Below are positions 1,904 to 11,416 of a stretch of 64,000 bases of DNA, piece after piece. How positions within the stretch are numbered: the stretch's first letter is position 1; each line of letters opens with the position of its first letter. The stretch is taken from contig JAZNSZ010000018.1 in the NCBI GenBank assembly GCA_045591465.1, forward strand, positions 5,730 to 69,729, in the 5' to 3' direction. This stretch comes from Acutalibacteraceae bacterium. GTDB lineage: Bacteria > Bacillota > Clostridia > Oscillospirales > Acutalibacteraceae. Below the pieces are notes generated by a model. It was given only the letters and a program-made list of their open reading frames with translations, had not been told where the DNA came from and ran no database searches. The position numbers were made by a program, and so were the translations under genes.

Positions 1904-2404
1904 ATGGAAAATTTAGACTTAAACAAGGTCATAGACTCAAATGAAAGCATTGAAAGTGCGGAAGCAAGGCTTGAAACCGTAAAAGCAGAGGTAAGCATAG
2001 AGGAAGCCATGCGCGAAGCCTTTTCAAAAGACCTTACACCCAAAATCTTGCGCCGTAAGGTGCGCTATAAAAGGGTAAACGGCGTAAAAGTGGAGTTTGC
2101 AGAGGTAACTGTTTACGAAACCGAGCTTAACGACTTGGTAGAAGCCGTTAAAACTCCTGCAAGGATAAAGCAAAATTACGAAAAATTGCAAACTCTCGGC
2201 GTACAGCTAAAGCGCGAAACCTCGCAAACCGAAATTTATAAACGCTGTATTGAGGCAGAGGCACAAATTAAACAGCTAAAAACCGAAATAATGCTTTTAG
2301 AGGCGAAAGTTAAGGAACGCGACCGCGAAATCGCAGAAATACAGACACAAGGCGCAGAGCCATATATTGACTATGAGGAACAAACCTTTGATTTAGAAAT
2401 TTAA
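1904..2404 (+). CDS. Hypothetical coiled-coil protein (element-borne)
   Basis: 166-aa ORF with an AAAGAGG RBS, 15 nt after mob. Glu/Lys-rich heptad-like sequence with no recognisable motif. Confidence 0.6.
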   Translation: MENLDLNKVIDSNESIESAEARLETVKAEVSIEEAMREAFSKDLTPKILRRKVRYKRVNGVKVEFAEVTVYETELNDLVEAVKTPARIKQNYEKLQTLGVQLKRETSQTEIYKRCIEAEAQIKQLKTEIMLLEAKVKERDREIAEIQTQGAEPYIDYEEQTFDLEI

Positions 2405-3196
2405 CCAATCAAGACTTGCCGTTTCGGGCAGGTCTTTTTTCGTCGGCACACGGCGTAAAAGCGCCGTCAGGTATAGACCGCCGTATGTGTCCTCAATAAA
2501 ATCAATGCTATTTTCGACCGTTTCAAAGCCGTTAAAATGGGTTTCGAGGTATATCGCGCTGTCGCTGTCCTTTTGGCAGAACGCCAACATTTTACGGTGT
2601 GAAATCCGCCCGTCGTGTTCGGTGGTCGTAGGCTTTTCAAGGCTACGGCTACCACACCACCGCTTGAACGTCGGGCGGTCGCCCTCGTCGTCATTGCCTT
2701 TGGTGAGATACACCGCAAGAGCCGTCAATCCGTCCTTTTCAAAACGCAAACGCTCGGCTGATACCGTCCCCTGTCCCCAAAGAGCAGAAAGCTCGTCCCT
2801 GCTCAAGCCGTCTGTGATAACAAGGTGGGCGTGTAGGCGTTGGTGTTCCTCGCCATACTCAATTATGTATATATATTTAGGCTCAAGCCCTGCGTTTGCA
2901 TACTTGCGTTTTACTCGGCGCAGAAAGTTTTGCACCGCCCTTTGACAGTCGGCGACCGTTTCGGGTAGGCGGTCATCTTCAAAGGTCAGCGTAACAAAAA
3001 GGTCTTTTTCGTTAAAATTGGTGTGCAAGAGCCTACGCAGACGGTCGGTGGCGTGTCGGTGGTTTAGCCTTTTTTGTATTTCGGTTGTCGGCTTCTTTCG
3101 TTTGCCTCGTCCTCTCTCTTGGGTGTAAACAGGGTAAATTGCTACCTCAATGTAGTCCCCACAAGTGTATTTTCTCTCTCGATATGTTCTTTGCAT
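2393..3196 (-). CDS. rep: HUH-superfamily rolling-circle replication initiator (Rep)
   Basis: Motif 1 FVTLTF, HUH motif LHAHLVIT, Tyr motif AVYLTKG. GAAAGGA RBS. Confidence 0.8.
   Translation of the reverse strand: MQRTYRERKYTCGDYIEVAIYPVYTQERGRGKRKKPTTEIQKRLNHRHATDRLRRLLHTNFNEKDLFVTLTFEDDRLPETVADCQRAVQNFLRRVKRKYANAGLEPKYIYIIEYGEEHQRLHAHLVITDGLSRDELSALWGQGTVSAERLRFEKDGLTALAVYLTKGNDDEGDRPTFKRWCGSRSLEKPTTTEHDGRISHRKMLAFCQKDSDSAIYLETHFNGFETVENSIDFIEDTYGGLYLTALLRRVPTKKDLPETASLDWLNF
2411..2440 (+). terminator. Terminator of the mob operon, embedded in the 3' end of the convergent rep gene
   Basis: AAGACTTGCC-gtttcg-GGCAGGTCTT followed by TTTTTT. Confidence 0.6.
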
Positions 3197-3342: not shown

Positions 3343-3390
3343 AAGAAAAGGCGTGCATTTTTGCACACCTCAGTTGTAACACATTATGTA

Positions 3391-3419
3391 TTGATATTTG
3401 TCGTAAAATATGATATAAT
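3391..3419 (+). promoter_or_regulatory. Sigma-A type promoter of the cargo gene
   Basis: TTGATA, 17-nt spacer, TATAAT, with an extended -10 TG. Confidence 0.6.
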
Positions 3420-3459
3420 TAATTTGTTAATAAACTTGAATTTTAAAGGCGGTCGTCTT

Positions 3460-4038
3460 ATGAATAAAATTATCGATTTTATTGCCCGATGGAATAAATC
3501 AACAAAAATTCTAATTTCAATAATTTTAGCACTAATCATTCTTTTTATGTCTATTTTCATTCCAACCTATAAGCAATACTCATATTATAAAAATGAAATG
3601 GCAATTAAAAATTACAATAGTTGGTGTGAAATATTAAATATTGCTAATAAAGTATATAATATTCAAAATATTGATGATCTTAAATTGTGTCGCGGATATA
3701 TAAATGGTGTTATATATGCAACACACTCCGAATTATTGCCAAATTTTCACGGGCAACCCACCTATACTTATTTTTTAACATTAAATTATGACAGTTTTAT
3801 TGCAGATGTCGTTTCAAACAATAATTACGAAGAAGAAAAAAGAAACGAAGCATTTTTACTTTTGAAAGAAATTAGTTTAGAGTTACAGGAATTGTGTGAA
3901 AAAATACTTGATATTTCTGAAAACAATAAATCTGCACTAATTGAAAGGGATTCTAAAATTTATAAGGAAGCAGAAAAGCTTATACACGATTTTTGCTATG
4001 AACAGGGTAAAATAATTTATGATTTTAACCATTCTTAA
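3460..4038 (+). CDS. Hypothetical N-terminally membrane-anchored protein (AT-rich cargo)
   Basis: ATG at 3460 with an AAAGGCGG RBS; the track ORF from 3361 is an upstream extension. One predicted TM segment (ILISIILALIILFMSIFIP). About 25 percent GC. Confidence 0.6.
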   Translation: MNKIIDFIARWNKSTKILISIILALIILFMSIFIPTYKQYSYYKNEMAIKNYNSWCEILNIANKVYNIQNIDDLKLCRGYINGVIYATHSELLPNFHGQPTYTYFLTLNYDSFIADVVSNNNYEEEKRNEAFLLLKEISLELQELCEKILDISENNKSALIERDSKIYKEAEKLIHDFCYEQGKIIYDFNHS

Positions 4039-4097: not shown

Positions 4098-4688
4098 TTG
4101 CTTTTGTCGTGGGGGAATGATGACACACAGGATTTAATCGATATTTTAAAGGAATATGATGTTCCTGCAACATTTTTTGTCGTGGGCGCTTGGGTGGATA
4201 AATATCCCGAATCGGTAAAGGCGCTGTCTGATGCGGGGCATCAAATACAAAACCACTCAAATACCCATCCGCACATGCCACAGCTTTCGCGTGAGCAAAT
4301 GAAAGACGAAATTGAAAGTTGCAACAAGAAAATCGAAGCGGTAACGGGCGTTTGCCCAACCCTTTTGCGCCCACCCTACGGCGATTATGATAACACCCTG
4401 ATAGAAACCATGACCGAACTTAATATGTATACAATTCAGTGGGATGTTGATAGCCTTGACTGGAAAGATAATGCAACACCCGATAGCATTTGCAAAAGGG
4501 TAACGAGCAAGGTCAAAAACGGCTCTATAGTGCTGTTCCATAACGATGCCGACCATACACCCGCAGCACTTCCCAATATTCTCAAATGCTTAAAAGACGA
4601 GGGGTACGAATTTGTGTTTATAAGCGACCTTATTTACACCGAAAATTACGAAATCAAACACGACGGAACGCAGTGCAAAATATCGTAA
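4098..4688 (+). CDS. Polysaccharide deacetylase (NodB/CE4, PdaB-like), apparently 5'-truncated
   Basis: SWGNDD at residues 4-9 corresponds to the first NodB motif (compare SWGEE of B. subtilis PdaB, from memory). HSNTHPH and LRPPYG motifs are present. There is no signal or TM region, only a TTG start directly after the terminator. Confidence 0.75.
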   Translation: MLLSWGNDDTQDLIDILKEYDVPATFFVVGAWVDKYPESVKALSDAGHQIQNHSNTHPHMPQLSREQMKDEIESCNKKIEAVTGVCPTLLRPPYGDYDNTLIETMTELNMYTIQWDVDSLDWKDNATPDSICKRVTSKVKNGSIVLFHNDADHTPAALPNILKCLKDEGYEFVFISDLIYTENYEIKHDGTQCKIS

Positions 4689-4771
4689 AAAAAGACGGCT
4701 AATGCCGCCCTTTAAAGATTACAAATAATGGTGATGGAATTGTAGACCTACGAACGATTTGTCGAATTGTC

Positions 4772-4800
4772 TTGACAAATTACCGTATGTGATATATAAT
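4772..4800 (+). promoter_or_regulatory. Consensus promoter of the candidate antisense sRNA
   Basis: TTGACA (4772-4777), 17-nt spacer, TATAAT (4795-4800). Confidence 0.65.
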
Positions 4801-4805
4801 ACAAG

Positions 4806-4894
4806 TGAAATAAGGCACACCGTATAGACGGCTAACCTATTTTTGTAGTTAAAAAGATAACCGCAACTTTTGGTCGAGGGCGGTTATTTTTTTA
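4806..4894 (+). ncRNA. Candidate type I antitoxin sRNA (about 88 nt)
   Basis: Runs from the consensus promoter to the hairpin plus T-run at 4857-4894. No ORF. Overlaps the toxin 3' end antisense and carries ACCGTATAG, complementary to the toxin 5' UTR. Confidence 0.5.
4857..4894. terminator. Bidirectional terminator shared by the convergent toxin and sRNA transcripts
   Basis: ATAACCGC...GCGGTTAT stem, flanked by an A-run upstream and a T-run downstream. Confidence 0.65.
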
Positions 4895-4955
4895 TGCTTA
4901 AAATGTACCCAATCACAAGCACCATAAGAATTATGATAAATGCTTCTTGTTCCAT
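4884..4955 (-). CDS. Candidate type I toxin, 23-aa hydrophobic peptide MEQEAFIIILMVLVIGYILSIKK
   Basis: AAGGGGGTGA RBS 5 nt before the ATG. A single TM-like helix with a KK tail. Too short for the ORF track. Confidence 0.55.
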   Translation of the reverse strand: MEQEAFIIILMVLVIGYILSIKK

Positions 4956-5049
4956 AGCATCACCCCCTTATATTTCAAGGGGGCATATACCCCTTGAAAC
5001 ATCAAAGGGTTAACCGCCTACCGTATAGGCATACCTTATTCCGTTTGCT

Positions 5050-5078
5050 ATTATAACATATATCGACAATATCTGCAA
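5050..5078 (-). promoter_or_regulatory. Promoter of the toxin mRNA
   Basis: On the minus strand: TTGCAG (5078-5073), 17-nt spacer, TATAAT (5055-5050). Confidence 0.55.
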
Positions 5079-5126
5079 CAGTAATCTTTTTAAACTTTTT
5101 ATAAAAAAGTCTTTACTTTTTTATAG

Positions 5127-5381
5127 AATGATGATTCTCTTGACTGGAGAGAAAATGCTACGCCAGAAAATATTGCCAAACGGGTAACAAGCAAGGTTAA
5201 AAACGGCTCTATAGTCCTTTTCCACAATGACGCCGACCATACACCCGCCGCTCTCCCCAATATTCTCAAATGCTTAAAAGACGAGGGTTATGAGTTTGCG
5301 TTTATAAGTGATTTGATATTAAAGGATAATTACGAAATCAAACACGACGGAACGCAATGTAAAAAAGACGGCGCTGAATAG
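5127..5381 (+). pseudogene. 3' remnant (84 codons) of a second PdaB-like deacetylase copy
   Basis: No start codon; there is an in-frame TAG at 5124-5126. About 88 percent aa identity by eye to the C-terminus of 4098-4688 (DSLDW...KHDGTQC). Confidence 0.8.
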
Positions 5382-5630: not shown

Positions 5631-5663
5631 AAAAAAAGACGGCGATTTTTCGCCGTCTTTTTT
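5631..5663. terminator. Bidirectional terminator downstream of the phosphatase gene
   Basis: A7-GACGGCG-attttt-CGCCGTC-T6. Confidence 0.7.
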
Positions 5664-5691
5664 CTATTTTTTGATATGTTAGTGTTGGGAA

Positions 5692-7155
5692 TTAACCACA
5701 GATAGCATCTATTGCGATTTTAGCAAAATCGGTGTTATCAATTTTGCCATTGAGTTTTTCAGAGCCAACACCTACACCAAATGTTCTTACATCAACACTG
5801 GAATGTACGTTAGATGTGAATAAAGAATTATCAAGTGCGTAGTTGCCACTTGGAAGTGTCACACCGCCGGTTTCGTGGTCGGAAGTGATAATAAGTAATG
5901 TATCAGGATTTTCTTTCATGAACTTAAGAATTACTGCAACTGTGCGGTCAACGGTAATAACATTATTGACTTTACCATTGATATTTTGCTTATGGCCCCA
6001 AGTATCACCAGCGGTGCTTTCCACCATAAGGAAGAAGCCGGTGCCTTTATTCTTTAAGCGGTTAAGAGCAACTTCTGTGCAACGTGCAAGAGTATTAGAT
6101 ACTTCGAGAACGCCTTCTTTAAAGAAACCGAAGAAGGGTTTTTGACGAAGCGGGTCTTCGTTAAGGGCGTTATTAAATTTGCCAAACTCGGTTGCAACAA
6201 GGAATTTTGATAAATCTACTTTTGAGAAATCGGCATCGCCCTTATAACCTTGACCGATTATAACATCGGGTTTAAATTGTGCATAAGCTTGTGCAATTTC
6301 CAGATAGTTGCTTCTAGAAGAATTGTGAGCAACGAAGGCTGCCGGTGTAGCGCCGGCAATATCATCGGTGGTAACAATACCAATCATTTTGCCCTTTTTT
6401 CTTGCCTTTTCTGAAATATTCTCTAAAATTTTACCGTCTAGGGTTATACCGAGGTGTTTGTTGTTTGTCTTAACACCGGTAGCTAAGGCTGTACCTGCAG
6501 CCGCAGAGTCGGTAGCAGAAGCAACCCCACTTAAAGTGCTCAAAGAACTAGTAACACATGTGCCGTTATTCTGGAATTGATTTAATATTGTGCCGGAATC
6601 GAGTAATAAATCCTTACTAAACTTTTCAGCCAATACAATATCATTTGGACCCATACCGTCGCAAATCATCATGATAACGTTTTTTGGTTTTTTGTATGTC
6701 ATTGAAAGTATTTGTTGAACTTCCGATTTAGTAATGGTGATTTCGCCGTCGGTGTACCAATCGGTATAACTAGGGTCAATAGCGCCACAACTTTGGCACT
6801 TTCCGTTTACATATTTATGACCCAAAGCTCTGGCAACTGTGATTCCGCAGAGTTTACATACAGAAGCCTTAACGCAAGTAGCGGCATTGTAAGAGTGTTT
6901 GCAGTCTTTTGCGTTTGCGGTAACATTAGAACTGGTTTTATCGTTTGCAGTGTTCTTGTTACTTGAAGTGGTTTTGTCGCTCGAAGTGGTACTGTTTGTA
7001 CCGGTTTGAACAGAGGAATTACCTGTAGAAGAATTTGTACTAGAGATAATTTGGTCGCCCTCTTCATAGAACGATTCATAGGTTGCGCCTGAGTTACAGG
7101 AACAAAGGGTAAAGAGCATTACTATAATACAAAGTACGGATAAAATCTTCTTCAT
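5692..7155 (-). CDS. Alkaline phosphatase family lipoprotein with Ser/Thr-rich linker and Cys-rich insert
   Basis: Signal peptide plus Cys (LFTLCSC). DGMGP metal-site motif, TDSAAAGTA (Ser nucleophile motif) and SDHETGG. Confidence 0.85.
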   Translation of the reverse strand: MKKILSVLCIIVMLFTLCSCNSGATYESFYEEGDQIISSTNSSTGNSSVQTGTNSTTSSDKTTSSNKNTANDKTSSNVTANAKDCKHSYNAATCVKASVCKLCGITVARALGHKYVNGKCQSCGAIDPSYTDWYTDGEITITKSEVQQILSMTYKKPKNVIMMICDGMGPNDIVLAEKFSKDLLLDSGTILNQFQNNGTCVTSSLSTLSGVASATDSAAAGTALATGVKTNNKHLGITLDGKILENISEKARKKGKMIGIVTTDDIAGATPAAFVAHNSSRSNYLEIAQAYAQFKPDVIIGQGYKGDADFSKVDLSKFLVATEFGKFNNALNEDPLRQKPFFGFFKEGVLEVSNTLARCTEVALNRLKNKGTGFFLMVESTAGDTWGHKQNINGKVNNVITVDRTVAVILKFMKENPDTLLIITSDHETGGVTLPSGNYALDNSLFTSNVHSSVDVRTFGVGVGSEKLNGKIDNTDFAKIAIDAICG

Positions 7156-8332: not shown

Positions 8333-8410
8333 AATTCTTTAATTGCATAAAATAAAGCGGCTCCATAACCTTTATAGGAATGAAGCCGCTTTGTGTAAGA
8401 CTTAGTTATA

Positions 8411-8488
8411 AATACCGAAAAATCGAACCATTTGGCCGAAAGAAAGGGATTATATTTTGTTTACGAAGTTATATAAATGTGTTATGAT
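8411..8488 (+). promoter_or_regulatory. hppA promoter region with a conserved upstream module
   Basis: TTTACG (8460-8465), 17-nt spacer, TATGAT (8483-8488) with an extended -10 TG. The upstream block 8411-8465 resembles 15978-16037. Confidence 0.45.
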
Positions 8489-8539
8489 GTAAGTTACAAA
8501 ATAAATCACAAAAATGTAGAAAGGTATAAGGTTTGTTTT

Positions 8540-10651
8540 ATGTTTGAATTTTTTAGTGAAAACTTTGTATTCATATCATTAACAAGTGCACTGGTAGCTT
8601 TGCTATTTGCTTTTTTAACAGCAAAAAGGGTGCTTGGTTTCGATGAGGGAACGGATAAAATGAAAAAAATCTCGGTTTCCATAAGAAAGGGTGCGTCTGC
8701 ATTTCTTAAGAGACAGTACAAAGTTGTTGCGGTATTCTTTTCAGTAATGTTTGTTGTATTGCTCGCTATGTCTTTTGGCGGACTTATAACGCGTTTTGTT
8801 CCATTTGCCTTTGTTTCCGGCGGGGTATTTTCGGCGCTCTCCGGATTTGTTGGTATGAAAATAGCAACATCGGCAAACTGCAGAACTGCCAACGCTTGTG
8901 TTTACTCTTTAAACAAAGGGTTAAAGGTTGCATTTTCTGCGGGTTCTGTAATGGGATTCACCGTTGTAGGTCTTGGACTTCTTGATATATCTCTTTGGAT
9001 ATTCTTACTTAAGTTTGTCTTTAAACTAACCGCTTCCGAGATGACATCTTCGATGCTTATGTTTGGTATGGGTGCTTCTTCGATGGCTTTGTTTGCGCGT
9101 GTGGGCGGCGGTATCTTTACCAAAGCGGCTGACGTTGGCGCAGACTTGGTGGGCAAGGTTGAAATCGGTATCCCTGAAGATGATCCACGTAACCCTGCTG
9201 TTATTGCCGATAATGTAGGTGATAATGTAGGCGACGTAGCAGGTATGGGTGCCGACTTATATGAATCCTATGTAGGTTCAATCATCTCGGCTATGGCACT
9301 TGGCGCTTCAGCATTTAAGGATATGACTTTGGCTGCTATTGCAGTACCTGTTCTTATTGCGGTAGTTGGAATAATGGGCTCTTTGTTAGGTACTTTATTT
9401 GTAAAAACAAAGGAAAACGCAACACAAAAGCAGTTGCTTTCTTCATTGAGTGCCGGTACAAACTGCAGCGCTATTACAGTTGTTTTACTCTCCTTCCCGA
9501 TTGTTTGGTTCATGTTGGGCGGAAAGCAAAACATAGGGCTTTATTTTGCTGTTTTAGTAGGTTTGCTTGGCGGTGTATTGATAGGTAAGATTACCGAGTA
9601 CTATACATCTGATTCTTACAATCCCACAAAGCATCTCGCATCAAAATCAAAAACAGGAAGCGCCACCGTTATCATCGGCGGATTGGGTCTTGGCATGTTT
9701 TCAACCGTAATTCCTGTTGTTATAATCGCGTCTTGTATTTTAATCGCTTTCTTCGTATCGGGCGGTGCTAACGGTGCTTCGCGCGGACTTTACGGAATTG
9801 CTCTTTCGGCGGTTGGTATGTTATCTACACTTGGTATAACACTTGCAACCGATGCATACGGTCCTGTTGCAGACAATGCGGGTGGCATTGCGGAAATGGC
9901 AGGGCTTGATAAAGTTGTACGCGAAAGAACCGATGCGCTCGATTCTCTCGGCAACACAACCGCGGCTATAGGAAAAGGTTTTGCTATAGGTTCTGCGGCT
10001 CTTACGGCACTTGCACTCATGGCTTCCTATGTGGATAAAATTAAGGAAGTTGCATTTGCTTCAGGAAAGGAAATTGAGACGGTATTCAATTTGACCGACC
10101 CAACAGTTCTTGCAGGTTTGCTTATAGGCTGTTGCTTACCTTTTGTATTTGCAGCTCTTACTATGGAATCAGTGGGCAAAGCAGCGCAGTCGGTTGTAGT
10201 AGAAGTACGACGCCAGTTTAATGAAATCAAAGGTCTTTTTGAAGGAAAAGCCGACCCCGATTACACTTCGTGCGTAGACCTATGCACAAAGTCGAGTCTT
10301 AATGAAATGGTATTACCGACCATTGTAGCTGTAGCAGTACCTGTTGTTTTGGGTATAGTTTTAGGTTATAAGGGTGTTGTTGGTATGCTCGCCGGCGCTA
10401 CCGCTTGTGGATTTTTGATTGCTATATTTATGTCTAATTCCGGCGGTGCCTGGGACAATGCTAAAAAATACATAGAAACAGGTTACATGGGCGGTAAAGG
10501 CAGTGAATCGCATAAAGCTGCTGTTGTTGGTGATACCGTAGGAGACCCATTTAAAGATACTGCCGGACCTGCTATAAATATCTTGATAAAACTACTCTCG
10601 ATGGTTTCTATCGTGTTTGCCGGTTTAGTTGTTAATTATAGCATTTTTTAA
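8540..10651 (+). CDS. hppA: Membrane-bound ion-translocating pyrophosphatase
   Basis: [29 protein letters not shown] and [14 protein letters not shown] motifs in a polytopic protein. The ATG at 8540 is preferred over the track start at 8477. Confidence 0.9.
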
Positions 10652-10699
10652 GCATCCACTGTTTTAAAAGACTCTGGTTTTAATAACGGAGATGATATT

Positions 10700-11416
10700 G
10701 TGAGTTTTGCTAAAAGCAATATTTTAAAGAATGAACTCATTTCGAAAAAATCTCTTCGAATAAAATTATTGGGAGATTCTATAACTCATGGTTTTGGCGG
10801 AACAGGTTATTCGCCGACGGATGAGCATATTGTTGATGAGTTTTATCGTAATAACAAGGGCTATTGCTGGGCTAATTCTTTCAGGGACTATATGAAAGAT
10901 AAATTCAATTGCACCGTTATTAACAACGGTTGTTCGGGCACTACGATTGAATTTATTATCGATAATTTTGATATATTAGTTGACGATGAAGATGATTTTA
11001 TAATCTGCACCATAGGAACAAATAACCGTCATTTTTATTTCAGTGCCGGTGAAAAACCCGAACGCGAAGCTTTTGGCACCAATATTTATAACAACATTAT
11101 TAAACTCTACGATAAATTCAAATCTGCAAACAAGCAGGTAGTGTTTATTGCAAATATCCCCGCAGCTGCGGATAGAGAACTTGACAGTGATGAATTTTGG
11201 CGAATATTACATATGGATGATATCAACAATATTTACAAAAAAGCATCCGAAAACTGTGGTTTGCCGCTTATAAGCCTCTATGATCTGTTTTCGCAATATT
11301 GTCAAACGAACAACATAATCGTGGACTCGCTTTTATCTGATGGTTTGCATCCGAACGATGACGGATACGATGTTATGTTTAAGTTGATAACAGAAGCGTT
11401 GGAACTAGAACAGTAA
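10700..11416 (+). CDS. SGNH/GDSL-family hydrolase (esterase), paralog 1
   Basis: Block I LGDSITHG, block II NNGCSG, block III GTNN, block V DGLHPN. GTG start with a GGAG RBS. Confidence 0.8.
   Translation: MSFAKSNILKNELISKKSLRIKLLGDSITHGFGGTGYSPTDEHIVDEFYRNNKGYCWANSFRDYMKDKFNCTVINNGCSGTTIEFIIDNFDILVDDEDDFIICTIGTNNRHFYFSAGEKPEREAFGTNIYNNIIKLYDKFKSANKQVVFIANIPAAADRELDSDEFWRILHMDDINNIYKKASENCGLPLISLYDLFSQYCQTNNIIVDSLLSDGLHPNDDGYDVMFKLITEALELEQ

Follow-up and report, generated by a model that had tools for sequence, protein, structure and literature searches.

Does a short hydrophobic open reading frame (ORF) lying between two convergent promoters mark a type I toxin-antitoxin (TA) module and, if so, one of a known kind? 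The question is raised by positions 4772-5078 of a 64,000-nucleotide (nt) stretch of contig JAZNSZ010000018.1 from an Acutalibacteraceae bacterium (assembly GCA_045591465.1, positions 5,730 to 69,729 of the forward strand; this whole stretch is referred to as the window, and coordinates refer to it unless another contig is named). In a preliminary description, the locus had been called an unannotated pair of a hydrophobic peptide and a convergent antisense small RNA (sRNA) with a par/Fst-like architecture. Comparison with homologous loci argues, with a probability of roughly 0.7, that the module is one member of an undescribed type I TA-like family of uncultured Clostridia (Oscillospiraceae-type genomes) and their phages. 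The 5′ regions of its two RNAs form an inverted, not a direct, DNA repeat, a feature that the preliminary description had missed.

Sequence features of the module

On the plus strand, the promoter TTGACA-17-TATAAT (4772-4800) can be read directly from the sequence and is the only site in the window that matches the consensus at 12 of 12 positions (chance expectation 0.11). It is predicted to drive a non-coding sRNA of 87 nt (4807-4893, plus strand; transcription start site placed from the -10 box and 3′ end from a T7 run), which would terminate at a central hairpin (approximately 4851-4893) that has T7 behind it on the plus strand and U5 in the toxin sense. On the minus strand, the promoter TTGCAG-17-(TGT)TATAAT (5078-5050), with the extended -10 element TGTTATAAT, precedes a Shine-Dalgarno (SD) sequence, AAGGGGGTGA (4960-4969, minus strand), located 4 nt 5′ of the ATG of a toxin-candidate ORF of 23 amino acids (4955-4884, minus strand; MEQEAFIIILMVLVIGYILSIKK; grand average of hydropathy (GRAVY) 1.5). 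The -35 box of the toxin promoter, TTGCAG, matches the consensus at only 3 of 6 positions, hence the absence of this promoter from the promoter-scan list; the sRNA promoter, being of consensus sequence, should be the stronger of the two. Both promoters, the ORF and all other sequence features listed in the preliminary description were found at the coordinates given there.

The stop codon of the toxin ORF and the three codons before it fall within the plus-strand 3′ arm of the central hairpin and its T-run, and the sRNA-complementary region starts 10 nt ahead of the ORF end. The predicted sRNA fold (-27 kcal/mol) is better than that of shuffled sequences (z = -3.7), as is the fold of an approximately 190-nt toxin RNA (z = -4.1), in which the SD is paired within a long helix. 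Two of the features taken singly are of little weight: the first 12 kb of the window contain 176 ORFs of at least 20 amino acids, such that the 23-amino-acid ORF alone carries no weight, and a 9-nt direct repeat such as ACCGTATAG (4819-4827 and 5020-5028, read from the sequence) is expected approximately 0.4 times by chance within 450 nt, by a rough estimate.

Homologous modules in unrelated contexts

Three conserved patterns (the sRNA 5′ end, the toxin leader, and the terminator plus SD) were used to fish for homologues. Together with that of the window, ten full modules were collected: four from metagenomes (L010, L011, L012 and L013) and five from IMG/VR (L014, L015b, L016, L017a and L017b), the L014 module being identical to one copy in the IMG/VR contig L015. 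The first homologue found was a partial module in two further, near-duplicate contigs (L006 and L007), which had been fetched for a related pdaB gene and carry the partial module approximately 600 nt downstream of that gene. No second copy was detected by nhmmer within the window.

The ORF and its convergent promoter arrangement are conserved in all ten modules. The sRNA promoter (TTGAC(A/T)-16/17-TATAAT) and the toxin promoter (TTGnnn-16/17-TAnnnT, with a TGn extended -10 in 9/10) each occupy the same position throughout, and the asymmetry between them is retained, with a consensus sRNA promoter in every module and a weaker toxin -35 box. The sRNA is 82-101 nt long in the homologues, with the 5′ motif and a strong terminator kept, and the hairpin is followed by a T-run of at least six in the sRNA sense at every locus. 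Every module also has a 5′ untranslated region (UTR) with C-rich anti-SD segments, and a hydrophobic ORF of 20-29 amino acids with a KK, KKK or KTKK tail and a stop codon inside the terminator. Both promoters, the ORF, its lysine tail and the anti-SD segments lie outside the patterns used for fishing. Between modules, the stem of the central hairpin shows a compensatory change from C-G to U-A and a C-to-U wobble (by-eye comparison).

The flanks of the modules are unrelated and mostly chromosomal, comprising genes for an energy-coupling factor S component (ECF-S)/cotJ, rubrerythrin, an extracytoplasmic function (ECF) sigma factor, uroporphyrinogen decarboxylase (URO-D), and phage portal and terminase proteins. 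Since the arrangement recurs in ten modules of unrelated context, the architecture seen in the window is more than chance. L015 represents a phage region (portal, large terminase, HNH endonuclease, and a helix-turn-helix (HTH) gene in the small-terminase position) with two divergent modules in intergenic gaps (4465-4796 and 10415-10750), one between the portal gene and the next gene, the other between the HNH and small-terminase-like genes. The viral contig L017 carries two modules in direct tandem (10248-9939 and 9930-9630). In L012, the ECF-transporter S-component gene next to the module is itself preceded by a tetrahydrofolate (THF) riboswitch (8377-8493, 88 bits).

A conserved inverted repeat with co-varying arms

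The sRNA and the toxin mRNA of every module begin with 35-45 nt that are same-sense copies of each other, and on the DNA these two arms form an inverted repeat directly inside both promoters. In the window, arm L corresponds to the sRNA 5′ region (4805-4845, plus strand; beginning GTGAAATAAGGCACACCGTATAGACGGCTAACC) and arm L′ to the toxin mRNA 5′ leader (5005-5043, minus strand; CGGAAUAAGGUAUGCCUAUACGGUAGGCGGUUAACCC). The arms co-vary between modules, the two arms of L016 sharing GGAGCTATC, those of L017a GTGTAAGG, those of L015b and likewise of L017b CCGATGGGC, and those of L010 GGTTAGCC. Differences between the arms of a module are asymmetric, with 37 between-arm transitions yielding a G·U pair in the toxin-sense helix (L′ with the complement of L) and 6 the opposite. 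Stability favours the toxin-sense duplex over its sRNA-sense mirror in all ten modules, by a mean of 12.6 kcal/mol, and cognate arms are the best or near-best duplex partners. RNAalifold analysis of an eight-sequence alignment gave a helix of 29 pairs, of which 7 show compensatory change and two are invariant G·U pairs; 95.6% of helix cells are paired in the toxin sense versus 79.1% for the same columns in the sRNA sense. The observed covariation was reached by 0 of 500 shuffles, and slid controls pair at 34-50%.

The covariation and the G·U asymmetry indicate that selection has acted on an RNA in which the toxin leader is present together with the complement of the sRNA 5′ region. From the sequences, we infer that this RNA would be a toxin transcript of approximately 350 nt reading through the central hairpin, because the 5′-3′ helix covaries and because the toxin-sense U-tracts that follow the central hairpin are weak or absent (U5 in the window, weaker in most homologues, none in L015b and L017b); the leader/tail helix can form only if transcription reads through this hairpin. 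In the window, the proposed full-length transcript would span 4690-5043 (minus strand), ending at a distal toxin-sense intrinsic terminator (GGGCGGCAUUAGCCGUC followed by U7; 4716-4687, minus strand) that overlaps the pdaB stop codon, and a short form ending near 4850 is possible. This distal hairpin (4687-4716) has its U7 run on the minus strand, whereas the plus strand offers only CUUUAAAG, which makes it better suited to ending toxin-sense transcription than to ending that of pdaB. Among the ten modules, at least six have toxin-sense intrinsic terminators 30-120 nt past the sRNA start, several of which begin at the complement of the -35 box. When long toxin transcripts were modelled hypothetically, 19-38 long-range 5′-3′ pairs were predicted in each of the ten.

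Dyad symmetry, by virtue of which nhmmer matches the modules on both strands, would also be shown by a MITE-like (miniature inverted-repeat transposable element) or att-site-like remnant of mobility or recombination, with the inverted repeats as its terminal repeats and an ORF and promoters that are there only incidentally. The many unrelated sites occupied, and the diverged local direct repeats that bracket two of the loci (237 nt in the window, 22 nt in L011), are in keeping with such an origin. It is nonetheless most improbable given that both conserved promoters lie outside the inverted repeats, that the divergence of the ORF is coding-like, that flanking direct repeats are absent from three of the four other loci checked, and that the arm differences are strand-asymmetric, with G·U pairs in one RNA sense only, a pattern that would not be seen in repeats acting at the DNA level.

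The inverted repeat also bears on the par/Fst model in its exact form, according to which a toxin RNA of approximately 190 nt and an sRNA of approximately 88 nt share a bidirectional terminator, and the 9-nt repeat provides a second contact that blocks translation. The repeat and the toxin-sense U5 after the hairpin are present in the window, and the module resembles par of pAD1 (Fst/RNA II) in its convergent promoters, complementary terminator stem-loops and SD-sequestering 5′ stem-loop, as well as in an antitoxin RNA that is small and likely abundant (PMC7472228). The direct repeat is, however, not conserved, shrinking to ACCGT, ACCG or ACC in the homologues; in the window it lies approximately 60 nt upstream of the SD, in the leader hairpin and not over the SD or start codon, and duplexes between the sRNA and toxin 5′ regions are no better than those of shuffled sequences (z from -1.2 to 0.0), which leaves the analogy to DRa/DRb without footing. 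Since the repeats of the module are inverted, its two 5′ regions resemble each other and do not have the complementarity seen in par, and this model offers no explanation for the conserved inverted repeat or for the strand specificity of its G·U pairs. The terminator is bidirectional in part only, with T7 in the sRNA sense against a toxin-sense U-tract that is U5 in the window and missing in two homologues. Further, the overlap of the two RNAs includes ORF codons, whereas that of Fst and RNAII does not, according to T1TAdb (PMC8594479). Fst-type peptides have a PXXXG(C) motif in the hydrophobic domain, a conserved tryptophan and a charged tail (PMC7472228); the module peptides are not of this type, with no Pfam match to the Fst family for any of the ten, even at E values up to 10, and with proline and tryptophan absent from all of them, such that neither a PXXXG motif nor the tryptophan is present. 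The exact par/Fst model therefore appears improbable, and the kinship proposed in the preliminary description is not upheld.

The Shine-Dalgarno sequence is predicted to be sequestered

The leader of the toxin mRNA contains the elements of an anti-SD/SD switch (4963-5009, minus strand). Four C/G segments are read from the sequence: A (CCCUUUG, 5003-5009), B (CAAGGGG, 4990-4996), C (CCCCCUU, 4977-4983) and D (AAGGGGG, 4963-4969), the last being the SD. In the minimum free energy (MFE) structure, A pairs with D and B with C, and in the RNAalifold consensus of four homologues A pairs with B and C with D, forming two hairpins with 3 compensatory pairs; the SD is paired in both folds. Co-variation of SD and anti-SD is seen between the window (CCCCCUU/AAGGGGG) and L013 (CCCUCUU/AAGGAGGG). 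For the SD core of the window, the predicted unpaired probability does not exceed 0.07 in any of the three states considered (short, long and sRNA-bound), and for the SD it does not exceed 0.15 in any state of the ten modules. The earlier proposal that pairing segments sequester the SD is supported in all ten modules. As the SD is paired in every state, these thermodynamic models do not separate locking from unlocking of the SD by the fold-back.

A role of the sRNA as an anti-SD acting in trans was considered and set aside, being plausible only for a subtype (GCCCUC) represented by L012, L007 and L017a; as no good match was seen by eye in the window or in L011, such a role is not general.

The peptides and their relation to known toxins

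The ten predicted peptides, of which that of the window is given above, are strongly hydrophobic (GRAVY 1.0-2.3): MEQEAFIIIFMVLVIGYIISIKK (L011), MEYLAIIALILILATGYIQSIKTKK (L010), MEYYFLVVLVLIVATGYITSIKK (L014), MEYLAFIVIILIVATGYITSIKK (L016), MEYIIIILIIVLYSIIAIKKK (L017a), MVISYELLILIVLLLLIITIKK (L015b), MGYELLILIVLLLLIISIKK (L017b), MITYSELFLLLTLIVSIIALVIDITKKK (L013) and MYITNQDLFQFSIVIISVVTLVITVIKKK (L012). Identity between the window and L011 is 93% for the ORF and 64% for the adjacent UTR region with the anti-SD and SD; the five differences within the ORF, read by eye, comprise 3 synonymous and 2 conservative changes, a pattern that is taken as support for selection on the peptide.

Weak similarity to the 'holin-like toxins', which are the TxpA family (PMC2887945), was found for two peptides. 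The Pfam Hol_Tox profile matched the L012 peptide with E = 1.8e-4 (21.7 bits, 1.6 bits short of the curated cutoff of 23.3) and the L013 peptide with E = 0.14, and the NCBIfam PepG1 profile matched one of these two peptides with E = 0.012 (15.2 bits, cutoff 70). Because these matches fall below the cutoffs and the other eight peptides match nothing, the family is treated as a possible distant, shorter relative of TxpA/SprG and not as a member. None of the ten peptide versions is present in a collection of 15 billion proteins by exact look-up, and a PDB profile search with the peptide returned generic transmembrane segments only. At the gathering score, no Rfam family was found in the window or in the nine homologous loci, the best sub-threshold matches being BsrG (17.9 bits) and ctRNA_pT181 (22.3 bits). 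Searches against GenBank phages and PLSDB plasmids gave no match with the module (blastn) or with two of the peptides (tblastn). The SD-to-start DNA pattern had no match in viral contigs, and its single match in species-representative genomes was rejected as a chance match, inside a gene read as mutL.

Is the peptide a toxin?

The features assembled above, namely a lysine-tailed hydrophobic peptide, an SD locked in a helix by redundant anti-SD segments, a stronger antisense promoter and a 3′ overlap with the ORF, correspond to the type I TA signature given in PMC2887945, PMC6733600 and PMC7699646. Across the family, tandem or multiple copies and phage location are added to these, and tandem repeats and prophage siting are typical of type I loci (PMC2887945; PMC7699646). 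The core of the preliminary description, a convergent pair of hydrophobic peptide and antisense sRNA with type I TA hallmarks, is strongly supported by the comparison, both promoters, the ORF, the sequestered SD and the sRNA terminator being conserved in 10/10 modules.

The same architecture could serve a small membrane protein that is not toxic, such as an accessory peptide of phage or host (for superinfection exclusion or membrane regulation) kept under antisense control, with no role in addiction or killing. The architecture is evidence of regulation and not of toxicity, two copies stand among phage morphogenesis genes in a moron-like manner, and some hydrophobic peptides paired with an antisense RNA are non-toxic, YhzE-2 having been tested with this outcome (PMC2887945). 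Against a harmless peptide, redundant SD sequestration and an antisense promoter of consensus strength occur in all ten modules and are a hallmark of genes that must stay off (PMC6733600); tandem and multiple copies exist; two of the peptides are weakly similar to Hol_Tox/PepG1; and the C-terminal lysine tail resembles that of the C. difficile type I toxins (PMC7699646). A non-toxic function is accordingly judged unlikely.

Several observations count against a type I TA family with a leader/tail helix, YhzE-2 among them. The sample is small, with ten modules obtained from three sequence patterns, and shared descent inflates some of the counts, including those for the helix, two of whose G·U pairs are invariant. 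For all ten modules, the transcripts and the toxicity are predicted. The window peptide itself has no toxin hidden Markov model (HMM) match in Pfam or NCBIfam, and Hol_Tox is touched by only 2/10 peptides, both under the curated cutoff. In the models, the SD stays sequestered with or without a bound tail or sRNA, and in the window, the toxin-sense U5 after the hairpin means that the short form of approximately 190 nt may dominate.

A proposed model of toxin mRNA control

For a module of the type I TA-like family, the following course of events may be proposed. The moderately strong promoter at 5078-5050 would produce a toxin mRNA starting near position 5043. With redundant C-rich anti-SD segments keeping its SD within a helix, this primary transcript is expected not to be translated. 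The toxin, as predicted from the ORF, would be a membrane peptide of 23 residues with one helix and a Lys-Lys tail. The 87-nt antisense sRNA can pair without mismatch with the 3′ part of the toxin mRNA, the last three codons and the stop codon among the paired positions. Much of the toxin transcription would read past the central hairpin to the terminator at approximately 4690, in which case the 3′ UTR of the toxin mRNA would be antisense to the sRNA over its full length. The 3′ tail of the toxin mRNA would then fold back onto its own 5′ leader. Contact with the sRNA would probably begin at the complementary hairpin loops, and the sRNA 5′ region, as a copy of the leader, would compete for the tail and displace the imperfect, G·U-rich leader pairing. 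By analogy, the resulting perfect duplex of approximately 90 base pairs (bp) would be cleaved by RNase III, with loss of the ORF 3′ end, a step of the kind known from the TxpA/RatA system.

The central element of this model, that the toxin mRNA crosses the whole antitoxin gene in antisense and is closed by a leader/tail helix from which the leader is displaced by the sRNA mimicking it, is put forward tentatively and with somewhat less than even confidence. If it is correct, leader, tail and antitoxin have to evolve together as a set of three, and this would account for the concerted changes in the inverted repeat.

Genomic context of the window module

Upstream of the module lies a truncated copy of pdaB, the sporulation gene for a polysaccharide deacetylase. 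A 237-nt direct repeat brackets the module, the left copy being the pdaB 3′ end (4444-4680, plus strand) and the right copy a displaced second pdaB 3′ end with an intact frame (5128-5381, plus strand; 83% identical), and the module is the sole content of the 684-bp segment (4444-5127) that these copies bracket, an insertion in pdaB separate from the serine-recombinase element described below. The displaced 3′ end has a distinct C-terminus (ending LILKDNYEIKHDGTQCKKD), which is shared by an orthologue in contig L002 (8021-8278); differences between the window and L002 remnants are synonymous in 34 codons versus 8, and approximately 25 nt upstream of the remnant are common to both. In L002, the insert between the pdaB stop codon and the remnant comprises a NUDIX and an acetyltransferase (GNAT) gene and no module. 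The pdaB 3′ region thus looks like a hot spot for cassettes whose insertion restores the gene; a second possibility is that selection still acts on the displaced copy as an alternative 3′ end.

Positions 1 to approximately 4106 of the window represent the right part of an element of approximately 7.5 kb, with a large serine recombinase just beyond the left edge of the window. The element carries a rolling-circle Rep gene (2393-3196, minus strand; phrog_3584, E = 2e-65), conserved ORFs of 431 and 166 amino acids and variable cargo, and has relatives in L018 (2525-10005), L008, L009 and L007. It splits pdaB at approximately codon 58, within the SFDAAWGNDDT motif, and the same junction (hairpin plus TTTTTGTACCTTTTTGCTTTTATCG|TGGGG) is found in five independent contigs (window, L005/L018, L007, L008 and L009); in L018, pdaB codons 1-62 are present at the far end of the element. 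It may be an intervening element of the skin/SPbeta kind, excised at sporulation. The module had been placed exactly at the edge of this mobile element; the element ends near 4100, and the module follows approximately 590 nt further on. The possibility that the module is cargo of the serine-recombinase element was rejected on the same ground, on the position of pdaB codons 1-62 in L018, and because the relatives L005/L018 and L008 lack a module.

Further observations were made in this region. Within the element, an ORF of 225 amino acids (3361-4038, GC content 24-30%) has no Pfam or PHROG match, and the corresponding slot holds a GH25 lysin in L005 and L009 and an HTH gene in L008. On the other side of the module, a strong bidirectional terminator (5631-5668; stem of 14-15 bp, T-runs on both sides) separates the pdaB remnant from a convergent alkaline-phosphatase gene (5692-7155, minus strand), for which an exact look-up returned no record. 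The L011 module (2138-2476), the closest to that of the window, directly follows a polysaccharide deacetylase gene that is a paralogue, approximately 51% identical to the full-length PdaB P0001, and is flanked by a 22-nt direct repeat (1745-1766 and 2102-2123) that duplicates the terminator of the neighbouring gene. A deacetylase gene precedes the module at three loci, those of the window, L007 (with its near-duplicate L006) and L011.

Relation to known type I systems

Among described systems, TxpA/RatA and SprG/SprF share with the module a convergent, 3′-side antisense RNA that overlaps the ORF end (PMC8594479). The peptides are likewise similar in plan, with a short polar N-terminus, one hydrophobic helix and a lysine-rich end, and TxpA/SprG systems occur in Firmicutes, prophages and excisable elements. 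The module peptides differ in being shorter (20-29 amino acids against the 34 positions of the Hol_Tox (PF16935) and the 47 positions of the PepG1 profile), in the lack of an HMM match for the window peptide and seven others, and in the lack of any Rfam antitoxin family matching the sRNA. To our knowledge, inverted-repeat leaders and the 5′-3′ fold-back that they imply have not been described for the TxpA and SprG families.

With hok/sok and aapA/IsoA, the module would have in common a predicted inert primary transcript in which local anti-SD hairpins are combined with long-distance pairing of the 5′ leader and the 3′ end, the latter known for toxin mRNAs from hok and aapA (PMC6733600). In those systems, however, the 5′ region is the target of the antitoxin, with the 3′ partner being trimmed off, whereas the antitoxin of the module would be antisense to the 3′ partner. 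They are also systems of Gram-negative hosts, as opposed to the Gram-positive host here, and have no peptide similarity to the module, whose fold-back is deduced from covariation alone.

The type I systems of C. difficile prophages (CD0977.1-RCd11 and others) are likewise those of Clostridia; they are convergent, the 3′ region of the antitoxin overlaps the toxin transcript, and these prophage-borne systems stabilise mobile elements (PMC7699646). No sequence relationship between them and the module was detected, and neither sequestration of the ribosome-binding site nor a fold-back was found in the passages on them that were read.

On the sequence comparisons presented here, the module is best described as belonging to a new type I TA family that would also constitute a new variant, with an inverted-repeat/fold-back architecture and a possible distant link to TxpA/SprG, and not as a par/Fst system.

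Implications

Type I TA systems are badly under-annotated, and those of Gram-positive bacteria are known mainly from Bacilli and C. difficile. The family described here occurs in uncultured Clostridia of gut or rumen and in the phages of these bacteria, and has been missed both by gene callers, with 0 of its peptides among 15 billion predicted proteins, and by Rfam. At 20-29 amino acids, its peptides would rank among the shortest known type I toxins, and they could become counter-selection markers in Clostridia, a use to which C. difficile toxins have already been put. If the fold-back of the toxin mRNA is true, long-distance locking of the hok kind would have arisen in Firmicutes too, and the family would provide a clean natural example of three-way RNA co-evolution.

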